Shown: positions 1 to 55,768 of the stretch, one piece after another
Position numbering within the stretch: position 1 is the first letter of the stretch
How the letters are laid out: the number at the start of each line of letters is the position of its first letter
IMG/VR virus record: IMGVR_UViG_2728369393_000007
Reading direction: 5' to 3' (one strand)
From: a virus
Lineage: Duplodnaviria > Heunggongvirae > Uroviricota > Caudoviricetes
Length of the DNA: 64,000 nt
Position numbers and translations under genes: made by a program
The notes under the pieces: model-generated
Database searches by the model: none
What the model was told of the DNA's origin: nothing
What the model saw: only the letters and a program-made list of their open reading frames with translations

Positions 1-303
1 TTAACGCGTATTTTTCAGCGACTCCTGTGCAAAATACGCTGTTGCTTTTTTTAATATATCTCGCTCAAGGCGAGCTTCATTTAACGCCTTACGCAGTTGC
101 AGAATTTCAGATTCCAGTTCAGCCACCGTGCGGGAACCAGGAGTACCGAGCCCTTTTCTGGCGGCGGTAACCCATTGTCCTAAAGTGCCTTCAGGAAGAG
201 ATAATCGGGAAGCGCCTTCACTGATCGAAAGTTGATTTTCAAGAACCGTTCTGACAGCTTCGGCTTTGAACTCTTTAGAGTAACGTTGGGTTTTTCTGCT
301 CAT
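1..303 (-). CDS. IS3-family transposase OrfA (HTH)
   Basis: 100-aa ORF MSRKTQRYSKEFKAEAVRTV...; window starts at its stop codon; identical to second copy. Confidence 0.85.
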   Translation of the reverse strand: MSRKTQRYSKEFKAEAVRTVLENQLSISEGASRLSLPEGTLGQWVTAARKGLGTPGSRTVAELESEILQLRKALNEARLERDILKKATAYFAQESLKNTR

Positions 304-367
304 TATTAGCTCCTTCTGATGCCATTCTATTTCAGGAAGGAGTGTCCGTTAAACTCAGGCTACCTCA
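1..367 (-). mobile_element. IS3-family insertion sequence, IS600-like, copy 1 (cut by window edge)
   Basis: Bases 304-367 are the reverse complement of 14863-14926 (terminal IR TGAGGTAGCCTGAG...); orfA identical to the copy at 14927-15229. Confidence 0.8.
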
Positions 368-618
368 TGTATTGTGAAATTACTGACGGAAAAAGCATTA
401 CGTACATGATCGCCGGGTTAAACAAAGAATATGGCGATGTGGTGGAGTCCGGGCTGCTTTTTGCGGATCCAGTTGTTGTGGAACGTGAGACTGACGAGCT
501 TATAGAAAAAGCTATTGCTTTCAAGCACGCGTATCGTCAGCAATACCAATATTACTTTGCAGATAAACAAATGTCTGCCAGGGGTTCGTATGAGTATCGA
601 TGCACTACGATGGGCTAA
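368..618 (+). pseudogene. 3' fragment of a phage early gene truncated by IS copy 1
   Basis: Reading frame continues out of the IS terminus (…YCEITDGKSITYMIAGLNKEYGD…); no independent start; family not recognised. Confidence 0.3.
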
Positions 619-20885: not shown

Positions 20886-23800
20886 GGAGAAGATGGCCGC
20901 GCAGGCACAAGCGTTTGAAGAGAAACTGGCTTCCCTGTCGGCGGTATTACAGAAGCATGTGACGGTGGATGAGGTACATCCGGTTCTGCAGGCGATGGTG
21001 GATGACGCTGCCACCGGACACCTGATTTCACTGGCTGATGAGTGGAGTTCCGTGAATGCCCGTCTGAAACAGGCGTCGCAGTCATCTGATGAATTTTCGT
21101 CATCACAGAAAGTGCTGATGGATATCAGCCAGCGGACAGGCACGGCATTTTCGGATAATGCGGCCCTGTTTGCCCGTTCGGCTGCCTCGATGCGTGAATA
21201 TGGTTACAGTGCCGGTGATGTACTGAAGGTGACGGAGGCCATTTCGACAGGGCTGAAAATATCCGGTGCCAGTACGGCAGAGGCGGGCTCGGTGATCACC
21301 CAGTTCAGCCAGGCGCTGGCACAGGGTGTGTTACGGGGTGAGGAATTTAATTCGGTCAATGAAAGCGGAGACCGGATCATACGTGCACTGGCTGCGGGTA
21401 TGGGCGTGGCCCGTAAAGACCTTAAGGCGATGGCGGACGACGGCAAACTGACGGCGGATAAAGTCGTTCCTGCGTTAATCAGCCAGCTGGGGGTATTGCG
21501 TGATGAATATGCCGCCATGCCGGAAACGGTCTCTGACGGGATCACAAAGGTGGAAAACGCCTTTATGGCCTGGGTGGGTGGCGCGAATGAAGCCAGCGGA
21601 GCGACGAAAACGCTCTCCGGCGTGCTGAACGGTGTTGCCGGTAATATTGATAATGTGGCAACAGCCGCGGGGGCGCTGGTTGCCGTCGGGGTGGCCCGGT
21701 ACTTTGGCAATATGGCCGCAGGCGTGGGAAAGGCCACCACAGAGCTGATCGCGGCGAAGTCCGGGACGGTTGCCCTTGCAGCCGCACAGGCAGATGCGGC
21801 TGTTCAGGTGCAGCGTAAGGCGGCAGCTGACGCGCTGGCGGCAGAACGTGCCTGGCAACTGGCACAGGCTGAACTTGCACTGGCCAGAAATAGCAGTGCG
21901 GAGGCGCTGCCCACACAGAATGCCGTCGCAAAACGCCGGGCCATGATTGTGGCCAATGCCGCACTGGTACAGTCGAATCAGGCGGTGGCGGCCTCGAGGA
22001 AGGCGCTGGAGAATGCCACGTCGGTTACGGGAATGCTGAAAAGTGGCGCGGCATCCCTGCTTTCGCTTGTCGGCGGGATACCCGGTTTACTGATGCTGGG
22101 AGCCGGTGCCTGGTACACGGTGTACCAGAATCAGGAACAGGCCAGGGAGTCCGCCCGTCAGTATGCATCGACGATTGATGAAATCCGGGCAAAGGTACCG
22201 GGAATGACCCTTCCGGAACTGGCTGATAATGAGGGTAAAACTCGCGAGGCACTGGAAGAGCAGAATCGTCTGATTGCTGAGCAGGAAAGTAAAGTCCGGG
22301 GACTGAAAACACAGATTGCTGACTATCAGCGCTGGCTGCAGGAAAATCCACAGGGTGGTTCAGGTGTGGAGATTATAACCCACGGCCTTGCGGAGGCAAC
22401 TGGCAAACTGGCGGTTGAACAGTCACGACTGACACAGATGCAGGAAAAGGCGAAGTCTGTACAGGAAGCTCTGGCGTCACTGGAATACAACCGTGTGGCG
22501 AGGATACGCGAGGAGGCAGCAGAGCAGAACAGAGCATACCAGGCATTGCTGCAGATGAATGTTCAGCATACGGAATTTAACCGTCTGCTGGGGCTGGGGA
22601 ATGAACTGCTTCAGCAGCGGCAGGGACTGGTGAATGTGCCGTTACGGCTGCCACAGGCCACCCTGGATGATAAACAGCAGAGTGCCCTGACAAAAACAGA
22701 GCGTGAGCTGGCCCTGTCCAGACTGAAAGGGGAAGAAAAAGAGCGTGTCCGGCTGGGGTATGCGGCGGATGACCTCGGTTTTGTGGGGGATCCGTATCAG
22801 GAGGCGAGACAGCGTTATATCAGTAATGCCCTGGAAGCCTGGCGCAATAACGAGGCGAATAAACCTAAATCCCGGGGTGGAAAATCAGAGCCGGAAAAAG
22901 CGGAAGACAGTTTTTCCCGGCTGCTTAAGCAGCAGAAGGCGCAACTGGCACTGGCCGGTCAGAACACGGAGCTGGCGAAGCTGAAGTACCAGACAGCGCT
23001 GGGTGAGCTGAAAACCCTGACGGAGATGCAGAAGCAGGAACTGCTGCGTAACGCGGCCCTGATTGACCAGCAAAAAATCCGGGAACAGTTGCGATCCCGG
23101 GAAGAGACCCTGAAGAATGATAATGTGGCTGCGCGTGCATCAAATGAAGCCGAACTGCTGGGGTACGGGCAGGGAGAACGAGCCAGGGAACGCATGCGGG
23201 AGTTGCAGCAGATCCGCGACAGCTTCCGCCAGAAGGATGCGGACCTTCAGTCTCAGTATCAGACCGGGGATATCAGTGAGGATTTTTACAGACAGGCACG
23301 GGCACAGAACGCGCAGTATCTGAGCGAACGCCTTAAGGACCAGGCAGCCTTTTATGCCGAATCGGATGTGCAGCGTGCGGACTGGCAGAAAGGGCTGCAG
23401 GAGGGATTCAGTAACTGGGTGGATAATGCGTCCGATTACGCCTCTCAGGCAGCACAGCTGGCGACTGAGGGGATTTCAGGACTGGTGAATAACATCACGG
23501 AGATGCTGAACGGAAACAAAGTGGAATGGCGCAACTGGGCCTCATCCGTACTGCAGGAAATCTCAAAAGTCCTTATGAATGCCGCGATTGTCAACGGGAT
23601 CAAGACGGCGGCAAACGGTATGTCCGGTGCAGGAGGATTTCTTGGCAGCATTGGTGACTGGCTGGGCGGTGCGGTGGTCAATGCAAAAGGCGGCGTGTAT
23701 ACCTCGGCAAACCTGAGCGCGTACAGCAACAGCATTGTGGATACGCCCACGTACTTTGCGTTTGCAAAAGGGGCCGGGCTGATGGGGGAAGCCGGACCTG

Positions 23801-24039: not shown

Positions 24040-24373
24040 GATAAAAACGCTGCATCTGGTCCCGCGTGAAGGGATGCAGGTGAGTGAGAAGCCGTCGGTG
24101 GTGAGGGTGCGGTTTGGTGACGGTTATGAACAGCGCCGCCCCACAGGGCTGAATCCTCAACTGAAGACGTTTCAGGCGGTGTTCCGGGTGACGGATGAGT
24201 CAACCCGGTGCTGGCTGGATGAATTTTTATCCTGGCATGGTGGTTACCGTGCCTTTTTATGGCGACCGCCGAAACATAACCGGATGGTCAGGGTGGTATG
24301 CCGTGAGTGGAGCGTCACGGATAACGTCCGGTACAGTGATTTCAGTTGTACGATTGAGCAGGTGGTGAACTGA
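24032..24373 (+). CDS. minor tail protein M
   Basis: …VVRVRFGDGYEQRRPTGLNPQLKTFQAVF… resembles lambda M; GTG start overlapping tape-measure stop. Confidence 0.8.
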   Translation: MAEIKTLHLVPREGMQVSEKPSVVRVRFGDGYEQRRPTGLNPQLKTFQAVFRVTDESTRCWLDEFLSWHGGYRAFLWRPPKHNRMVRVVCREWSVTDNVRYSDFSCTIEQVVN

Positions 24374-25071
24374 TGCAGGACATTCATGAAGAAAGTCTGA
24401 ACGAGTCGGTTAAATCAGAGCAGTCACCGCGGGTGGTGCTCTGGGAAATTGACCTGACGGTGCAGGGTGGTGAGCGGTATTTTTTCTGCAATGAGCTGAA
24501 TGAAAAAGGGGAGCCGGTCACCTGGCAGGGGCGGAAGTACCAGGCATACCCGATTGACGGCAGTGGCTTTGAGATGAACGGGAAGGGCAGCAGTGCCAGA
24601 CCGTCGATGACGGTGTCCAATCTGTTCGGTCTGGTCACCGGGATGGCGGAAGACCTGCAGAGTCTGGTGGGGGCCACGGTGGTCCGCCGCCGGGTGTATG
24701 CCCGTTTTCTGGATGCGGTGAATTTCGTTGCGGGCAATCCGGAGGCAGACCCGGAGCAGGAGCTGAGTGACCGCTGGGTGGTGGAGCAGATGTCGCAGCT
24801 GACAGCCATGACGGCCTCGTTTGTGCTGGCCACACCGACCGAGACGGACGGAGCGCTGTTTCCCGGTCGCATCATGCTGGCGAACACCTGTATGTGGGAT
24901 TACCGGGGAGAGGAGTGCGGTTTCACCGGCGGGGCGGTGGCGGATGAGTTCGACAACCCCACCACGGATATCCGGAAGGACAGATGCAGTAAATGCATGC
25001 GCGGGTGTGAGATGCGCGGCATGGTGGCTAATTTCGGCGGTTTCCTTTCCATTAATAAACTTTCGCAGTAA
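24373..25071 (+). CDS. minor tail protein L
   Basis: 232 aa with C-terminal Cys cluster; ATG overlaps M stop. Confidence 0.8.
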   Translation: MQDIHEESLNESVKSEQSPRVVLWEIDLTVQGGERYFFCNELNEKGEPVTWQGRKYQAYPIDGSGFEMNGKGSSARPSMTVSNLFGLVTGMAEDLQSLVGATVVRRRVYARFLDAVNFVAGNPEADPEQELSDRWVVEQMSQLTAMTASFVLATPTETDGALFPGRIMLANTCMWDYRGEECGFTGGAVADEFDNPTTDIRKDRCSKCMRGCEMRGMVANFGGFLSINKLSQ

Positions 25072-25081
25072 ATCCCGTTTT

Positions 25082-25882
25082 ATGACACAGACTGAATCAG
25101 CGATTCTGGCGCATGCCCGGCGGTGTGCGCCAGCGGAGTCGTGCGGCTTCGTGATAAGCACCCCGGAGGGCGAACGGTACCAGCCCTGTGTGAATGTCTC
25201 CGCAGAGCCGGAGGCGTATTTTCGTATTGCACCGGAAGACTGGCTGCGGGCAGAGATGCAGGGGGAGATTGTGGCACTGGTCCACAGTCATCCCGGTGGT
25301 CTGCCCTGGCTGAGCGAGGCCGACCGGCGGCTGCAGATAAAAAGTGCACTGTCCTGGTGGCTGGTCTGCCCGGGGGACATTCATAAATTCCGCTGTGTGC
25401 CACATCTGACAGGACGGCTCTTTGAGCACGGGGTGACGGACTGTTACACGCTGTTCCGGGATGCCTACCATCTGGCGGGAATTGATATGCCGGATTTTGA
25501 GCGTGAGGATGACTGGTGGCGTAACGGTCAGAACCTTTACCTGGACAATATGGCGGTCACCGGCTTTTACCGGGTGCCCCTGTCCTCTGCACAGGCGGGC
25601 GATATCCTGCTGTGCTGCTTTGGCGCATCGGTGGCCAATCATGCCGCCATTTACTGCGGCAACGGTGAACTGCTTCACCATCTGCCTGAACAACTGAGTA
25701 AACGGGAGAGGTATTCCGAAAAATGGCAACGACGAACGCATTCAGCCTGGCGTCACCGCCACTGGCACGTATCTGCCTTCACGGGGATTTACAACGATTT
25801 GGCCGCCGCCTCAGCCTGTACCCGAACACGGCGATTGTGGGGCTGCAGGTGGATGCGGAGCAGTTTGGCGGTCAGCAGATGA
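25082..25882 (+). CDS. tail assembly protein K (JAB/MPN + NlpC/P60-like)
   Basis: …EIVALVHSHPGG… and …GVTDCYTLFRDAYHLAGI… motifs; 3' end altered by the I::J deletion. Confidence 0.75.
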   Translation: MTQTESAILAHARRCAPAESCGFVISTPEGERYQPCVNVSAEPEAYFRIAPEDWLRAEMQGEIVALVHSHPGGLPWLSEADRRLQIKSALSWWLVCPGDIHKFRCVPHLTGRLFEHGVTDCYTLFRDAYHLAGIDMPDFEREDDWWRNGQNLYLDNMAVTGFYRVPLSSAQAGDILLCCFGASVANHAAIYCGNGELLHHLPEQLSKRERYSEKWQRRTHSAWRHRHWHVSAFTGIYNDLAAASACTRTRRLWGCRWMRSSLAVSR

Positions 25883-28615
25883 CGGTGAACTACCATATCC
25901 GCGGTCGCATCATCCAGGTACCGTCAAACTATGACCCGGAAAAACGCACGTACAGCGGCATCTGGGACGGCAGCCTGAAACCGGCATACAGCAACAACCC
26001 GGCCTGGTGCCTGTGGGACATGCTGACTCACCCGCGCTACGGCATGGGAAAACGTCTGGTGGCGGCGGATGTTGACAAGTGGGCGCTGTATGCCATCGGG
26101 CAGTACTGCGACCAGACGGTCCCGGATGGTTTCAGGGGCACAGAGCCGCGGATGACCTTTAATGCGTACCTGTCACAACAGCGTAAGGCGTGGGACGTTC
26201 TCAGTGATTTCTGCTCGGCGATGCGCTGTATGCCGGTATGGAACGGCCAGACGCTGACGTTCGTTCAGGACCGCCCGTCGGATGTGGTGTGGCCGTACAC
26301 CAACTGCGATGTGGTGGTGGATGATAACGGCGTGGGGTTTCGCTACAGCTTCAGCGCCCTGAAGGACCGCCACACGGCGGTGGAGGTGAATTACACCGAC
26401 CCGCAGAACGGCTGGCAGACCTCCACTGAACTGGTGGAAGACCCGGAAGCCATACTGCGCTACGGACGCAATCTGCTGAAGATGGATGCGTTCGGCTGTA
26501 CCAGTCGCGGTCAGGCTCATCGTGCCGGACTGTGGGTGATAAAGACCGAACTGCTGGAAACGCAGACGGTGGATTTCACGCTCGGTCACAGGGGCTGCGT
26601 CACACACCCGGTGACATTATTGAAATCTGTGATAACGACTATGCCGGGACCATGACCGGCGGACGTATCCTGTCCATCGATGCCGCCAGCCGCACCCTGA
26701 CACTGGACCGTGAGGTGACCCTGCCGGAGACAGGTGCCGCCACGGTGAACCTGATTAACGGCAGCGGTAAGCCGGTGAGCGTGGCCATCACTGCACACCC
26801 CGCGCCGGACCGGATACAGGTCAGCACCCTGCCTGATGGTGTGGAGACATACGGTGTATGGGGACTCTCCCTGCCGTCACTGCGTCGTCGCCTGTTCCGC
26901 TGTGTCTCCATCCGGGAAAACACGGACGGCACCTTTGCCATCACGGCGGTGCAGCACGTACCGGAAAAGGAAGCCATCGTGGATAACGGGGCCAGCTTTG
27001 AGCCGCAGTCAGGCACCCTGAACAGCGTCATCCCTCCGGCAGTGCAGCACCTGACGGTGGAGGTGAGCGCAGCTGACGGTCAGTATCTGGCGCAGGCGAA
27101 ATGGGACACGCCGCGGGTGGTGAAGGGTGTGCGCTTCAGCCTGCGCCTGACCAGCGGAAGCGGAGAAGACAGCCGTCTGGTGACCACCGCCATCACCGCG
27201 GATACAGAGCACCGTTTCAGCGGTCTGCCGCCGGGGAATACACCCTGACGGTCAGGGCGATTAACAGTTATGGCCAGCAGGGCGAACCGGCCACCACCAC
27301 GTTCAGGATTTACGCACCTGCGGCACCCGCCTCGATTGAGCTGACGCCGGGTATTTTCAGATAACGGCGGTCCCGCGTCTTGCGGTGTATGACCCGACGG
27401 TACAGTTTGAATTCTGGTTCTCAGAAAAACGCATCACGAACACGGCACAGGTGGAAACCTCTGCCCGTTATCTGGGTAGCGGCAGTCAGTGGAGTGTATC
27501 CGGCCCGCACATTAAGCCCGGGAAGGATTTCTGGTTTTACGTGCGCAGCGTCAACCTGGTGGGGAAATCTGCGTTTGTGGAAGCCAGTGGCCGGGCCAGC
27601 AATGATGCAGAAGGGTATCTGGGGCTGTTTCGGGAAAAAATAGGAAAACTGCATCTGGCTCAGGGGCTGTGGGAGCTGATAGACAACAGCCAGCTTGCGG
27701 ATGAGATGGCGGAGATGAAGACCACCATCACCGAAACCCGCAATGAAATCACACAGACGGTCAGTAAAACGCTGGAAGACCAGAGCGCCACCATTCAGCA
27801 GATACAGCGCGTGCAGTCAGGCAGAAGAGAACGCTGCAAATGCTGACACTTCAGCAGGGGATGCATCGGAGTCAGCCCGGCAGGCGGCAGAAAGTGCAGC
27901 CTCAGCAAAGCAGTCAGAGGAGGCGTCCTCGTCCTCGGCCTCTGAGGCCGCTCAAAAAGCCAGTGAGTCATCACAAAGTGCAGCAGAAGCTGAATTGTCA
28001 AGAAAGACGGCAGAAAGTGCAGCCGGTAATGCAGCCAGGGATGCAACGACCGCAGCAGAAAAAGCCCGGGAGTCAGCAGAAAGCGCACAGTCAGCGGAAC
28101 AAAGCAGGATAGCGGCGGAAGAAGCCGTAAACAGAATCCCCACAGTGGTGGGGCCACCCGGGCCAAAGGGAGAACCGGGGCCCGCGGGTCCTCAGGGGCC
28201 GAAGGGAGATAAAGGAGAGCGGGGAGAGACCGGGCTGACAGGAAATGCAGGTCCACAGGGTCCAAAGGGAGATACCGGTGCGGCAGGCCCGGCAGGCCCA
28301 CAGGGACCGAAAGGAGAAACAGGTGCGGCTGGCCCGGTGGGGGCAACCGGACCTCAGGGGCCGAAAGGCGACCCGGGGGAGACACAAATACGGTTCCGTC
28401 TGGGGCCGGGAAACATTATTGAGACAAACAGCAATGGCTGGTTCCCGGATACAGATGGCGCACTCATCACCGGACTGACCTTTCTTGACCCCAAAGATGC
28501 CACACGGGTTCAGGGTTTTTTTCAGCATTTGCAGGTCAGGTTTGGTGACGGGCCGTGGCAGGATGTCAAGGGGCTGGATGAAGTGGGCAGTGATACAGGC
28601 AGAACAGGAGAATGA
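25723..28615 (+). pseudogene. I::J fusion and frameshifted host-specificity protein J / collagen-like tail fibre
   Basis: First 33 codons are gene I (MATTNAFSLASPPLARICLHGDLQRFGRRLSLY) fused in frame to J interior (PNTAIVGLQVDAEQFGG…); frameshifts near 26586, 27237, 27349 and ~27830; 3' part carries Gly-X-Y collagen-like repeats. Confidence 0.65.
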
Positions 28616-28616
28616 C

Positions 28617-28886
28617 ATGAATATTTTGAGAAAGCTTATGGAGCGTCTGTGTGGTTGCGAAAAGCATGATGACCGTGAAAACGGGGAGTTACTTACAGCA
28701 CAACTGCGACTGGGACCGGCAGACATTCTGGAGTCCGATGAGAATGGCATTATCCCGGAGCAGGACAGGGTAATCACGCAGGTGGTGATACTGGATGCGG
28801 ATAAAAAGCAGATACAGTGCGTGGTAAGACCGCTGCAAATCCTGCGTGCTGACGGGAGGTGGGAAAATATTGGCGGAATGAAATAG
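28617..28886 (+). CDS. hypothetical tail-fibre-associated protein
   Basis: 89 aa MNILRKLMERLCGCEKHDD…; 3' end and downstream terminator recur at 29593 and 33095. Confidence 0.4.
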   Translation: MNILRKLMERLCGCEKHDDRENGELLTAQLRLGPADILESDENGIIPEQDRVITQVVILDADKKQIQCVVRPLQILRADGRWENIGGMK

Positions 28887-28945
28887 CCGACAGCTTCACA
28901 AAACCGGAGTCCGGCTCCGGTTTTTGTTGTCATGTATAGGGGATA
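28749..28945 (+). repeat. junction repeat R1, copy a (gene 3' end plus terminator hairpin)
   Basis: Related to 29593-29700 and 33095-33228; contains CCGGAG-TCCGG-CTCCGG hairpin + T5. Confidence 0.7.
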
Positions 28946-29105
28946 TTTGTTATTAGAGTGTGAAGTAATAAACATGTTAATACGATGGAGTGAAGGATGC
29001 CTTTAAGGAGCAGTGATATGTCCATCTTGTTCCCTGGAGGGGGAATCATAAATTCTGATTGCGACCGAGGCATGGAACACTACTGTAGTTCAGGGAAGTT
29101 CGGCG

Positions 29106-29648
29106 ATGAAGCTCATTCTTGCGACGCGTAATTATTATCTGGAATATGGTTTGCGTTTGTTACTGAAAGGATGCCGTGTAATTCTGGCTCAAGAATTTTT
29201 TATGCCGGAGAATCGCAGGGTTATTCTGGATAGTAAAGAATCCTGGTTAATAATCTGTGATAGTCAGTTGGGCCATTTAATGCGCAGCATGTTTCAGGGA
29301 CGCCGTTTTATTCAGCTGGATCTGGAAGCGTTGAAAGGGGGACATGATATACATAATGCTGTGCGTAACAGATTGTGGACCTGGAACAAAAAAGCACGGG
29401 CACTGACGATGTCAGAGATGGTGGTGATGTTTGGATATATCTACCGTCAGTTGCGTCCGTTCCATCTCGCCAGTGAGATGAGGGTAAACATAAAAACAGT
29501 TAACACTTTCCTGTATTCAGGGCTGGCGAAAAATGGGCTCAAAAGAAGTAGTGTAAGGTTGCTGGCAATTTCTGAGAACAAGCGAATAGGGCATTATTCC
29601 GGAGCAGGACAGGGTAATCACGCAGGTGGTGATACTGGATGCGGATAA
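29106..29648 (+). CDS. LuxR-type HTH regulator-like protein, 3' end replaced by repeat R1
   Basis: C-terminal region LTMSEMVVMFGYIYRQLRPFHLASEMRVNIKTVNTFLYSGLAKNGL resembles GerE/LuxR HTH; last ~18 codons read through repeat R1 copy b. Confidence 0.35.
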   Translation: MKLILATRNYYLEYGLRLLLKGCRVILAQEFFMPENRRVILDSKESWLIICDSQLGHLMRSMFQGRRFIQLDLEALKGGHDIHNAVRNRLWTWNKKARALTMSEMVVMFGYIYRQLRPFHLASEMRVNIKTVNTFLYSGLAKNGLKRSSVRLLAISENKRIGHYSGAGQGNHAGGDTGCG

Positions 29649-29700
29649 AAAGCCGATACAGTGCGTGGTGAGGCCGCTGCAAATTCGGTGTGCTGATGGG
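29593..29700 (+). repeat. junction repeat R1, copy b (partial)
   Basis: Near-identical to 28749-28850. Confidence 0.65.
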
Positions 29701-29776
29701 ACGAGGGAAAAATTTGTGGATGACATTTGTTGTGGACCTTTAAGTCTGGAGTTCAAATTAAAACAGGGAGCTTTAT

Positions 29777-30129: not shown

Positions 30130-31452
30130 TTAGACTCTTGTTTCTTGGATTATATCAACGGTATCAACATAATTTGATGGGTTATGATGTGGTGAGTTAT
30201 TGCTTTCGATATTGATGACCACATCCTCTGGATTTGGATGCCGTTGTCCAACAGATACACCTTCTTCCATTGCGCGTATATCAGCCCCTGTGGCATGTTC
30301 AATATCTGCTTTATTTGGGAAAATGGCACCTTCTCTTGCATGCCACCATATACGAGGATAGTCAGTGAATCTGGCCTCTCCAAACTCGGCCTTGTTTAAA
30401 TCAGCCAGTCCAAGAGTAGTACCTGCCCACCATAAAATAGTGTCTGGCTTTAATCCGGGGGTATTATACTGTATGGCATGCCCCGCTGCTTGCCCAACCA
30501 TTGCACCGATATGAGGACTTAACATTGGATCTGTACCAGTAAATCTGGATACTGCAAATCCCCCTACAGCACCAAGCGCATTTGCGGCAGCATTGGTAAG
30601 AACGGCATATTTAGTATTAGGGTTATCTAAATCCCACTTGAAATGTGCGCCAAACTCCAGCCCTAGAGTTGCCTGTAGTGGAGATGCACCATATTTAAAA
30701 TCTGCTTCTCCCGGTCTGATCACCCACTCTTCAGTATAATTTGCTTTGGGGCCATCAGGAGTAAGAGGAGTTTCTCCAACAAGCTTCCATCCATTTTCAG
30801 TTTTGACTATAGGAAGTTCCACACCATGATTACGAACTACTTGAGCTGTTAATCCAAACCATGGTATTGGGTCTTTTGACGCGGTGGTTACCGTCGAAGT
30901 AGTGGCTGATGCAATAGTGGATGCAGCAGTCGATACAGTGGTTGGTATATTGCTGTTGCTTAATGCATTTTTTAATGGACCAGGAAGGTCTTTAAAATTA
31001 ATACCTATTTCATCATGCAAAGGGAATATCTGTAAAAAATAATTACCTGATGTAGGATGAATATCTGGTTTTACAATGTTTAGCTGGACACCATATTTAC
31101 CAGAGATACCCGGAACGGTGCTGGGTATTTCTAATGCCATCTGAGAGACATTGAATAAACCAAACATATCCAATGCTTTTTTTCCTGCAGAGCCTTCTTC
31201 AAGATGAGGTGCAAGATATTTATCCAGCCCAGAGAGCAGACCTTCATCTTTTATCAAGCTCAGTAGAGCTGTTGTTTCACCGCATTCCGGTGCATGTCGC
31301 TGCATATCCTCTGGGATATGAACAACAAATCCCGTTTCGCATCCATTAGGTAATTCGGATTGCGGTATTTGTGTAGGGGACGTTTGTTCTGCGTGATGAT
31401 GTCGATTGTTTTGTGTGGTGATTCCGGATGTTACGATCGGTTGAATGTTCAT
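30130..31452 (-). CDS. nleA: type III secreted effector NleA/EspI
   Basis: 440 aa MNIQPIVTSGITTQNN… with C-terminal PDZ-binding ETRV. Confidence 0.9.
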   Translation of the reverse strand: MNIQPIVTSGITTQNNRHHHAEQTSPTQIPQSELPNGCETGFVVHIPEDMQRHAPECGETTALLSLIKDEGLLSGLDKYLAPHLEEGSAGKKALDMFGLFNVSQMALEIPSTVPGISGKYGVQLNIVKPDIHPTSGNYFLQIFPLHDEIGINFKDLPGPLKNALSNSNIPTTVSTAASTIASATTSTVTTASKDPIPWFGLTAQVVRNHGVELPIVKTENGWKLVGETPLTPDGPKANYTEEWVIRPGEADFKYGASPLQATLGLEFGAHFKWDLDNPNTKYAVLTNAAANALGAVGGFAVSRFTGTDPMLSPHIGAMVGQAAGHAIQYNTPGLKPDTILWWAGTTLGLADLNKAEFGEARFTDYPRIWWHAREGAIFPNKADIEHATGADIRAMEEGVSVGQRHPNPEDVVINIESNNSPHHNPSNYVDTVDIIQETRV

Positions 31453-33094: not shown

Positions 33095-33228
33095 TCAGTG
33101 TGTAGTAAGACCGCTGCAAATCCTGCGTGCTGACGGGAAGTGGGAAAATATTGGCGAAATGAAGTAACCCGATAGCTTCACAAAAACCGGAGTCCGGCTC
33201 CGGTTTTTGTTGTCATGTACGGGGGATG
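33095..33228 (+). repeat. junction repeat R1, copy c
   Basis: Matches 28812-28945 including terminator hairpin. Confidence 0.7.
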
Positions 33229-33273
33229 TCTGTTAGGAATAATTAGATAGGTTTATTTTGAAGGTTGAAATGT

Positions 33274-53246: not shown

Positions 53247-54152
53247 TCAGGACAGCACACCAATCGCCAGTGCGCGATCGATAAAACGAAATATCAGCTC
53301 CAGTTGGGAACCATACTTCTCTTCAAATGCCACGGTATCCGCATGCAGTTCGTCATGGTGTTTTCTGCACAAAGGCAACACAAAAAGGTCATGCGCTTTT
53401 GTACCCATTCCACCCTGACCATGGCCAATCAGGTGATGTGGATCGTCGGCTGGCTTACCACAACACGCGCAAGGCTGTGTCTTAACCCAGCGCGTGTACT
53501 TTTCATTAACCCAGCGACGACGTTTGGGGCGTAACATAAAAGACTCCGGCGACTCCGGATCCACTTTCAGCGCCAGCACCTTTTTCGCTTTATCCTGGAT
53601 AATGCTGGTGGCAGGAACCGAAGGCACAAGGTCACTCTCCCGGGTGACAGACGGCAAAACAGGCTTCGGTAATCTCAGGGCCTTACGGGCTGCACTTTCC
53701 GGTAAGGCATCCGCCAGGTCATTACGAACCAGCCACCAGCACAGTTCAGGCATTGTCACAACGTGACTGTCATCAAAACCGAGATCACGACGGACTACGG
53801 ACAACACCCAGCGGGCACAGTTATCCGTTGCCATTGACTCCAGACGTTCCGTGAACTGATCGCGAAGCAGGTTATCGCAGTGCCAGCACAGACGGATTGC
53901 GCCCGGCGCGTGTCGCATTGTGGTCATGTTCTCGCTGTGCCATCCGGAATGAGGCCACTGGCAGCCTTTTTCACGAAGTAACCAGCTCTCAAGGCATTCC
54001 ACGCCACCAGCACGACGGATCACCGCCTCATGGCGGAACACGGCCCGAACGGCAGGATCATCCGCCAGCGGTTGTGATGCTGCCGGAACGGCACCACTGG
54101 CAAAAGATGAATAACGTTCCGGCTCAGGCTCCAGCAGGACACGCCCCTGCAT
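53247..54152 (-). CDS. DUF968 family protein (YdfU-like), inverted relative to neighbours
   Basis: …CACCGKPADDPHHLIGHGQGGMGTKAHDLFVLPLCRKHHDELH; paralog of 4949-5932. Confidence 0.7.
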   Translation of the reverse strand: MQGRVLLEPEPERYSSFASGAVPAASQPLADDPAVRAVFRHEAVIRRAGGVECLESWLLREKGCQWPHSGWHSENMTTMRHAPGAIRLCWHCDNLLRDQFTERLESMATDNCARWVLSVVRRDLGFDDSHVVTMPELCWWLVRNDLADALPESAARKALRLPKPVLPSVTRESDLVPSVPATSIIQDKAKKVLALKVDPESPESFMLRPKRRRWVNEKYTRWVKTQPCACCGKPADDPHHLIGHGQGGMGTKAHDLFVLPLCRKHHDELHADTVAFEEKYGSQLELIFRFIDRALAIGVLS

Positions 54153-55114: not shown

Positions 55115-55768
55115 ATGTTTAATACTGTAAAAATATCCAGTTGTGAGTTAATCAACGCCGACTGCCTGGAATTTATCCGGTCGTTACCCGAAAATTCTGT
55201 TGACCTGATAGTCACGGACCCGCCGTACTTTAAAGTGAAGCCTGAGGGCTGGGATAACCAGTGGACGGGTGATGAGGATTACCTGAAATGGCTGGACCAG
55301 TGTCTGGCGCAGTTCTGGCGGGTGCTGAAACCTGCCGGAAGTCTTTACCTGTTCTGTGGCCATCGCCTGGCATCTGACATTGAAATCATGATGCGTGAAC
55401 GCTTCAGTGTGCTGAACCATATTATCTGGGCGAAGCCGTCCGGACGCTGGAACGGGTGCAACAAGGAAAGCCTGAGGGCGTATTTCCCCGCCACAGAGCG
55501 CATTCTGTTCGCGGAACATTATCAGGGGCCGTATCGTCCGAAAGATGCCGGGTATGAGGCGAAGGGCAGGGCACTGAAACAGCATGTGATGGCTCCGCTG
55601 ATTGCTTACTTTCGTGATGCGCGTGCTGCCCTGGGGATAACGGCAAAACAGATAGTGGATGCCACAGGAAAGAAAAACATGGTGTCGCACTGGTTCAGTG
55701 CCAGTCAGTGGCAGCTACCGAACGAAAGCGATGAAGTCACCGTTACTGAAGCGGGCGCTGCAGGGTAA
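55115..55768 (+). pseudogene. DNA methyltransferase (DPPY motif), C-terminally truncated
   Basis: …DLIVTDPPYF… catalytic motif present but no C-terminal SAM-binding FxGxG block; ORF ends 13 nt before tail-gene remnant. Confidence 0.55.

Follow-up and report, generated by a model that had tools for sequence, protein, structure and literature searches.

In the tail region of a lambda-like prophage, a deletion of about 1.45 kb has fused codons 1-33 of gene I, in frame, with an internal part of gene J. The window analysed here is a 64,000-nucleotide stretch of viral DNA (IMG/VR record IMGVR_UViG_2728369393_000007). It contains two lambda-like tail modules: copy 1, which carries the fusion, and copy 2, which belongs to a second, Stx2-type prophage. 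The endpoints of the deletion lie in a 14-bp imperfect direct repeat, the junction occurs in only one of the complete E. coli genomes searched, and the same prophage carries further inactivating lesions. The event is very probably a spontaneous and lineage-specific deletion in the late operon of a defective lambda-like prophage, likely by slipped mispairing, and the remnant that it left is most probably non-functional.

Position and size of the I-J deletion

The two tail modules were compared by BLASTN (15-32 kb against 50-64 kb of the window), and two collinear homology blocks were found. Positions 24354-25832 match 59483-60947 with 93.0% identity, and positions 25819-27425 match 62380-63989 with 94.3% identity. 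From one block to the other, the offset changes by 1446 bp. The stretch missing from copy 1 is 1463 bp when strain War is used for comparison and 1477 bp with phage 2851; the original prediction of about 1.2 kb was too small. On both sides of the join the gene order and orientation, M-L-K-I'...'J-fibre, are collinear with the intact relatives. Identity to strain War is 95.0% in the left flank and 96.9% in the right flank, and over 25819-27816 the DNA is 94-97% identical to the J genes of phage 2851 and strain War.

The open reading frame (ORF) at 25723-26655, which encodes 310 aa in the window, begins with MATTNAFSLASPPLARICLHGDLQRFGRRLSLY and, after the I part, runs on as PNTAIVGLQVDAEQ... 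/ PNTAIVGLQVDAEQFGG..., which is J sequence. Its first 33 amino acids are identical to gene I of phage 2851 (33/33), differ in 2 residues from I of copy 2 at 60838, and are identical to lambda I at about 20 of 33 positions. I codon 33 is joined in frame to J codon ~213, and positions 25723 and 25822 share the same phase. The in-frame fusion that had been predicted from the sequence was therefore confirmed by the BLASTN blocks together with the shared phase. The J entry residue, placed about 230 codons into J by that prediction, is residue 213 by the strain War and lambda numbering, though it is 233 in the longer annotation of phage 2851.

No insertion sequence was found at 25819-25832 when the sequence at the join was read. 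The region has the properties of a deletion pseudogene, namely flanks collinear with an intact relative, a missing internal segment and no mobile element at the join. These results support the conclusion that the ORF at 25723 is an I-J chimera made by deletion and not a full-length member of an I-like family. The junction can be recognized by the marker sequence CGCCTCAGCCTGTACCCGAACACGG, and the evidence for it comes from long-read assemblies produced by one laboratory.

Effects on the K, I and J reading frames

Gene K (25082-25882, plus strand) encodes a tail protein with the JAB and NlpC/P60 'C40 peptidase' domains, as identified from the translation and by Pfam (Prok-JAB and NLPC_P60). All 245 native residues of K are kept. 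The native TGA stop would sit at 25823-25825, where CGA is now found, and the join lies exactly at this stop. As a result, K is extended by 21 codons read out of frame from J and ends at 25882 with 266 aa. The K proteins of copy 2 and phage 2851 end with ...SAC(M/T)*. In the RefSeq equivalent, PGAP marks K as an incomplete C40 peptidase.

The gene I fragment (25723-25821, plus strand) consists of the ATG start and 33 codons, and it overlaps the 3' end of K in another frame. The sequence GGGAGAGG, located 11-14 nt upstream of the I ATG, is a plausible Shine-Dalgarno sequence. In the lambda reference annotation, I overlaps K by 103 nt, and the I start likewise lies inside K here. The K/I overlap and the gene order K, I, J are the same as in lambda (NC_001416).

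Two forms of gene I are in use in the annotations. PGAP starts I at a GTG that overlaps the K stop, which gives 193 aa (RefSeq records L003, 4523-5104, and L005, 3376-3957). The lambda and phage 2851 annotations start it at the upstream ATG inside K, which gives 223 and 226 aa, respectively. The junction falls 2-3 nt before the GTG start, so that under the PGAP model all of I would be missing and the 33 I codons would count as sequence without annotation. The reading that these 33 codons are not I was rejected, with the lambda annotation using the long form; the short form is also disfavoured by the Pfam I domain, which starts at residue 15 of the long form.

The internal J fragment (25822-27816, plus strand) covers approximately residues 213-878 of the 1158 in J, as determined by BLASTN to strain War and phage 2851 and by Pfam. 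In RefSeq, the ORF from the I ATG is 708 aa long and contains I 1-33, J ~213-878 and a few out-of-frame residues. PGAP annotates J in NZ_CP014583.1 as 'missing N-terminus and C-terminus', and its K and J meet at the junction coordinate.

Junction patch and proposed mechanism

The deletion junction patch TACCCGAACACGGC (25819-25832, plus strand) was defined by three-way alignments against copy 2, strain War and phage 2851. The left parental-type site in the second, Stx2-like prophage is TATGTGAACACGGC (60934-60947, plus strand), which contains the K stop and I codons 33-37. The right parental-type site in the same prophage is TACCCGAACACGGC (62380-62393, plus strand), at J codons ~212-216 (..CYPNTA..). 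The left parent agrees with the junction up to TA, or up to TAC with the I of the phage 2851 type, and the right parent agrees from TACCCGAACACGGC onward. The crossover falls within TA(C) at 25819-25821; next come CC of J origin and the 9-mer GAACACGGC. In the I frame, copy 2 reads ...CTG TAT GTG AAC ACG GCA..., with the K stop TGA inside, and copy 1 reads ...CTG TAC CCG AAC ACG GCG..., with TGA changed to CGA.

The parental sites, written as TA(C/T)GTGAACACGGC and TACCCGAACACGGC, form an imperfect direct repeat of 14 bp, whose left copy is TAYGTGAACACGGC and whose right copy is TACCCGAACACGGC. The repeat has 11-12 matches in 14 positions, a count derived from relatives that are 93-97% identical rather than from the true parental sequence. 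The perfect 9-mer GAACACGGC within it is common to both parental sites. The original prediction of 2 bp of microhomology holds for the crossover in the strict sense, which is TA (TAC against the I of the phage 2851 type), but these bases sit in the longer patch. In the K-J region of strain War, a match of 12/14 or better is reached by only 134 of 12.7 million position pairs, approximately 1 in 100,000. Because such patches are so rare in this region, the coincidence of the endpoints with the patch is unlikely to be due to chance.

Slipped mispairing, or another RecA-independent event at short homology, is the most likely origin of the deletion as judged from its scar. In the proposed mechanism, the imperfect 14-bp direct repeats at I codons 33-37 (the K stop) and at J codons ~212-216 would mispair. 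The nascent strand would be copied leftward through the J copy TACCCGAACACGGC, would re-anneal on the I copy TACGTGAACACGGC, and would then be extended. The predicted product contains the left flank, TAC, CC of J origin, GAACACGGC and the right flank, which is exactly what is observed. Against slippage, the crossover itself used only 2-3 bp, the other two deletions of the prophage lack an extended patch, and the 9-mer could in principle be coincidental.

Spontaneous deletions in E. coli by slipped mispairing at short homologies are classically described for lacI. Similarly, the endpoints of the I-J deletion lie in a short imperfect direct repeat of which one copy is kept, and the join carries no signature of an insertion sequence or of site-specific recombination. 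Unlike the lacI-type deletions, the I-J crossover was resolved in the first 2-3 bp and not in the perfect 9-mer, and its mechanism is deduced from the scar.

Two other mechanisms were considered and rejected. Deletion mediated by an insertion sequence or by IEE does not agree with the absence of an insertion sequence at the join, and iee is reported to be disrupted in this lineage (PMC5567499). Homologous recombination between the two prophage copies does not agree with endpoints at non-homologous positions.

Domains retained in the fusion

The Lambda_tail_I domain (PF06805) covers residues ~15-97 of the 226-aa I protein, and the intact I of phage 2851 scores 60.2 bits against a Pfam gathering score of 23.8. 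No PF06805 hit was found by Pfam in the 310-aa ORF of the window or in the 708-aa RefSeq version, and the fusion is not assigned to this family. In the lambda tail tip, gpI is resolved from residue 101 and comprises two hydrophobic helices, a plug (159-175) and beta-strands that thread the gpJ hub (PMC11101478). This C-terminal part, including the helices, the plug and the strands, is absent from the fusion, in which only I residues 1-33 remain.

Pfam identified FNIII-A_GpJ, Phage-tail_3, Ig_J, Ig_J_second, Phage_Tail_Tip and Ig_GpJ_C (the receptor-binding domain) in the intact J of strain War. The fusion keeps only Phage-tail_3, Ig_J and Ig_J_second rather than the full gpJ series; FNIII-A_GpJ, Phage_Tail_Tip and Ig_GpJ_C were not found in it by Pfam. 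The receptor-binding domain of gpJ is C-terminal in the lambda tail tip (PMC11101478). In a comparison with lambda, the fusion spans residues 1-33 of I and 212-850 of J; the 639-column alignment contains 444 identities and verifies the homology to gpJ. Full-length relatives match the solved gpJ chains (structures 8IYK and 8XCG). Unlike lambda, the fusion is without 193 of the 226 I residues and without the N-terminal ~212 and the C-terminal ~280 residues of J. The domain content suggests that the fusion is a non-functional remnant.

Distribution of the junction

A 301-bp query spanning the I-J junction was searched at a coverage of at least 80%. Among 5,426 complete E. coli genomes, the junction was found in one, CFSAN004176 (O145:H25), and one or the other half of the query was present in 3,317 genomes of the same set. 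The same query found no junction in 50,697 phage records. Similarly, exact 25-28-mers of the junction were absent from the GTDB representative genomes, the JGI metagenomes and IMG/VR. The possibility that the ORF is a natural member of an I-like family, which had been raised against the chimera, is contradicted by this restricted distribution and by the missing PF06805 hit.

A 100-aa junction peptide was also compared with a collection of 5.8 billion proteins and gave no hit above 68% coverage; this is a weak negative, with only proteins of 175 aa or less returned. Tail assembly proteins that covered 60% of the peptide were examined and rejected as an extension of I, being run-ons of the local alignment through the shared NTA. 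Look-ups of the exact 310-aa ORF product and of the exact 266-aa extended K found nothing on record.

The junctions at 27814-27816 and 21009-21010, which belong to the two other deletions described below, were likewise found in CFSAN004176 only among the 5,426 genomes. From the restricted distribution of the junctions, it follows that all three deletions are recent and lineage-specific.

Sequence quality of the window

The window was compared with RefSeq record NZ_CP014583.1 of CFSAN004176. Positions 4291-47495 contain 0 mismatches and 19 one-nucleotide gaps in 43 kb, and positions 57578-64000 contain no substitutions and 40 one-nucleotide gaps in 6.4 kb. Almost all of the gaps are a missing G or C in a short run, a pattern of long-read consensus error. 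Because of these gaps, many apparent frameshifts are seen in the tape measure, L, K, I and J genes of copy 2.

The frame of the J fragment is broken three times in the window, where one G is missing from the G runs at 26584, 27233 and 27349. The extra G is present at each of these positions in RefSeq, strain War and phage 2851. The stop at 26655 comes after the one-nucleotide loss in the G run at 26584, and the end of the 310-aa ORF at this stop is probably a homopolymer error, because RefSeq of the same lineage reads 708 aa. Similarly, the 182-aa ORF at 60838, previously described as an I remnant, is matched in RefSeq by an intact I of 226 aa. One C is missing from the window at 61307, and the remnant state is probably a one-nucleotide assembly error. 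The frameshifts at 26584, 27233, 27349 and 61307, and many others, should not be taken for biology, because the second assembly of the same lineage is without them. Statements about the window that are based on frameshifts are unreliable.

The I-J junction is base-identical in the window and in the RefSeq record of CFSAN004176. CFSAN004176 and CFSAN004177 were both sequenced on the PacBio RS II and assembled with HGAP3/Quiver, and the published assemblies were checked with optical maps.

Second prophage and origin of the window

The second prophage of the window has no stx2. At 55732/55733, the interior of a DNA methyltransferase gene runs straight into tail genes (tail protein, G, T and tape measure; through 57577), and this join replaces the region from stx2 to the head genes. 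At the same point, RefSeq CFSAN004176 contains tRNAs, a broken stx2A, stx2B and a holin before the record ends. The sister strain CFSAN004177 carries a P01 prophage without stx2A/B, as described in PMC5567499. Because the neighbouring prophage differs structurally from that of RefSeq CFSAN004176 and is without stx2, the window is probably the separately sequenced sister strain CFSAN004177.

A 906-bp segment at 53247-54152 is inverted relative to RefSeq CFSAN004176. The segment is an exact ATG...TGA frame, from Met29 to the stop of a DUF968 gene. Its ends carry no inverted repeats, and the flanks are ...CTGTTT| and |TTTTTTGTGG. It is odd that an inversion matches the ORF boundaries at both ends, and mis-assembly, editing or a genuine event could each account for it.

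Other lesions and identity of the prophage

The fusion lies in 'PPompW', a defective effector prophage of E. coli O145:H25. Its tail genes are followed downstream by the effector genes nleA (30130-31452, minus strand), nleH1-2, nleF, nleG and espM1, and these by the integrase (~41400-42700) and excisionase of the Stx2-type prophage. The element published in PMC8112680, with O145:H25 genomes in PMC5567499, is the same one and from the same strain lineage: it is lambda-like, with nleA/nleH/nleF/nleG/espM1 downstream of the tail and a Stx2 or Stx2-like prophage adjoining. A 'prophage in prophage' arrangement, with attB inside PPompW, is described in PMC8112680, where CFSAN004176 is named explicitly. 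The same source (Nakamura et al. 2021) found every PPompW prophage that it examined to be defective, the causes being IS insertions, inactivated genes and deletions. In the passages of PMC8112680 and of Lorenz et al. 2017 (PMC5567499) that were reached by keyword, the I-J junction, its repeat and the loss of the K stop are not mentioned.

The diagnosis of a deletion pseudogene is supported by the other inactivating lesions of this prophage, which are an IS600 in terL, two further deletions and the pseudogene flags of PGAP. The IS600 (14863-16126, plus strand, 1264 bp) lies in terL, the large terminase gene, and is flanked by a 3-bp target duplication, as determined by alignment to phage 2851 and by PGAP, which places it between two terminase fragments. 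More than 50 copies of IS600 have been reported for the lineage. Window positions 1-368 are identical to part of the terL IS600 in the opposite orientation.

The portal-to-tape-measure deletion has its junction at 21009-21010 (plus strand), with TG microhomology, and about 4.2 kb was lost as determined by alignment to phage 2851. It joins approximately codon 523 of the portal gene to approximately codon 79 of the tape-measure gene and removed the genes for the head-tail adaptors, the tail terminator, the tail tube and the chaperone. PGAP annotates the merged ORF as a frameshifted portal protein. The J-to-tail-fibre deletion has its junction at 27814-27816 (plus strand), with CAG microhomology, and about 2.0 kb was lost. 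It joins J codon ~878 out of frame to approximately codon 138 of the tail-fibre gene, and it removed the J tip and receptor-binding end as well as lom. Both junctions have 2-3 bp of microhomology and no extended patch. The prophage can make neither heads nor tail tubes.

Several fragments of ~135-140 bp (28746-28952, 29590-29723 and 33096-33235), with a mutual identity of about 90%, lie dispersed between the effector genes. They match the coding sequence of the tail-fibre C-terminus, and PGAP annotates them as partial tail-fibre pseudogenes.

Discussion

The join between I and J could in principle have been produced by the assembly, since PacBio RS II reads can be misassembled across near-identical lambdoid tail regions, of which this genome, with 14 prophages, has many. 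The many one-nucleotide G/C indels against RefSeq (19 in 43 kb and 40 in 6.4 kb) show that the consensus is imperfect, and a single laboratory produced the assemblies with a single pipeline, HGAP3/Quiver. However, when repeats collapse, it is homologous positions that become joined, which does not fit a link between I codon 33 and J codon 213. In addition, two structurally different assemblies, the window without stx2 (probably CFSAN004177) and CFSAN004176, share the junction base for base, and the published assemblies were checked with optical maps. An artefact of this kind is very improbable. The same low probability is given to illegitimate recombination between two resident lambdoid prophages, in which I would come from one and J from another, together with a larger rearrangement. 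Lambdoid prophages are numerous, their tail modules are 90-97% identical (in 7 places of the genome record), and the identity to strain War is slightly unequal, 95.0% on the left and 96.9% on the right. The flank identities to the three references are nevertheless similar, order and orientation are collinear with the intact relatives on both sides, and a simple deletion accounts for the join in a single step, with no other rearrangement.

It is extremely unlikely that the fusion is a functional new gene, either as a natural I-J tail-tip variant or as a J-like fragment that interferes with co-resident or incoming lambdoid phages. In favour of a function, the in-frame join preserves the I start, the RefSeq product has 708 aa with three intact J domains, and the J of the co-resident Stx2-like prophage is 94% identical. 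Nevertheless, an in-frame join occurs by luck in one of three cases, and the fusion is found in a single lineage, in a prophage that has lost its terminase integrity, its head-tail joining genes and its tail tube gene. The fusion is without the portions of J and I that assembly and receptor binding require, and the sequence of the window itself contains three frame breaks. The truncated I'-'J product may be expressed after induction. That the 708-aa product is expressed on induction and, as a J fragment with hub and Ig-like domains but no receptor-binding end, could poison tail-tip assembly of the co-resident Stx2a phage is a highly improbable proposal; if true, the yield of infectious Stx phage would be lower in this lineage.

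The I-J fusion is a case of routine pseudogenisation in the ordinary decay of a prophage, not a new gene. The type of event is textbook knowledge, the element has been published as defective, and RefSeq already flags K and J at this position. The present analysis adds a precise description of the scar with its 14-bp repeat and shows that the K stop was lost; it also adds the two companion deletions and a caution about homopolymer errors. In annotations, the ORF at 25723 should be treated as a pseudogene remnant, and the importance of the finding beyond annotation is small. At least three such deletions are present in one prophage, and the I-J deletion alone damages K, I and J at once, three tail genes that overlap or adjoin one another. 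The prophage provides a clean and datable example of how an effector prophage is fixed in the EHEC chromosome by successive short-homology deletions.
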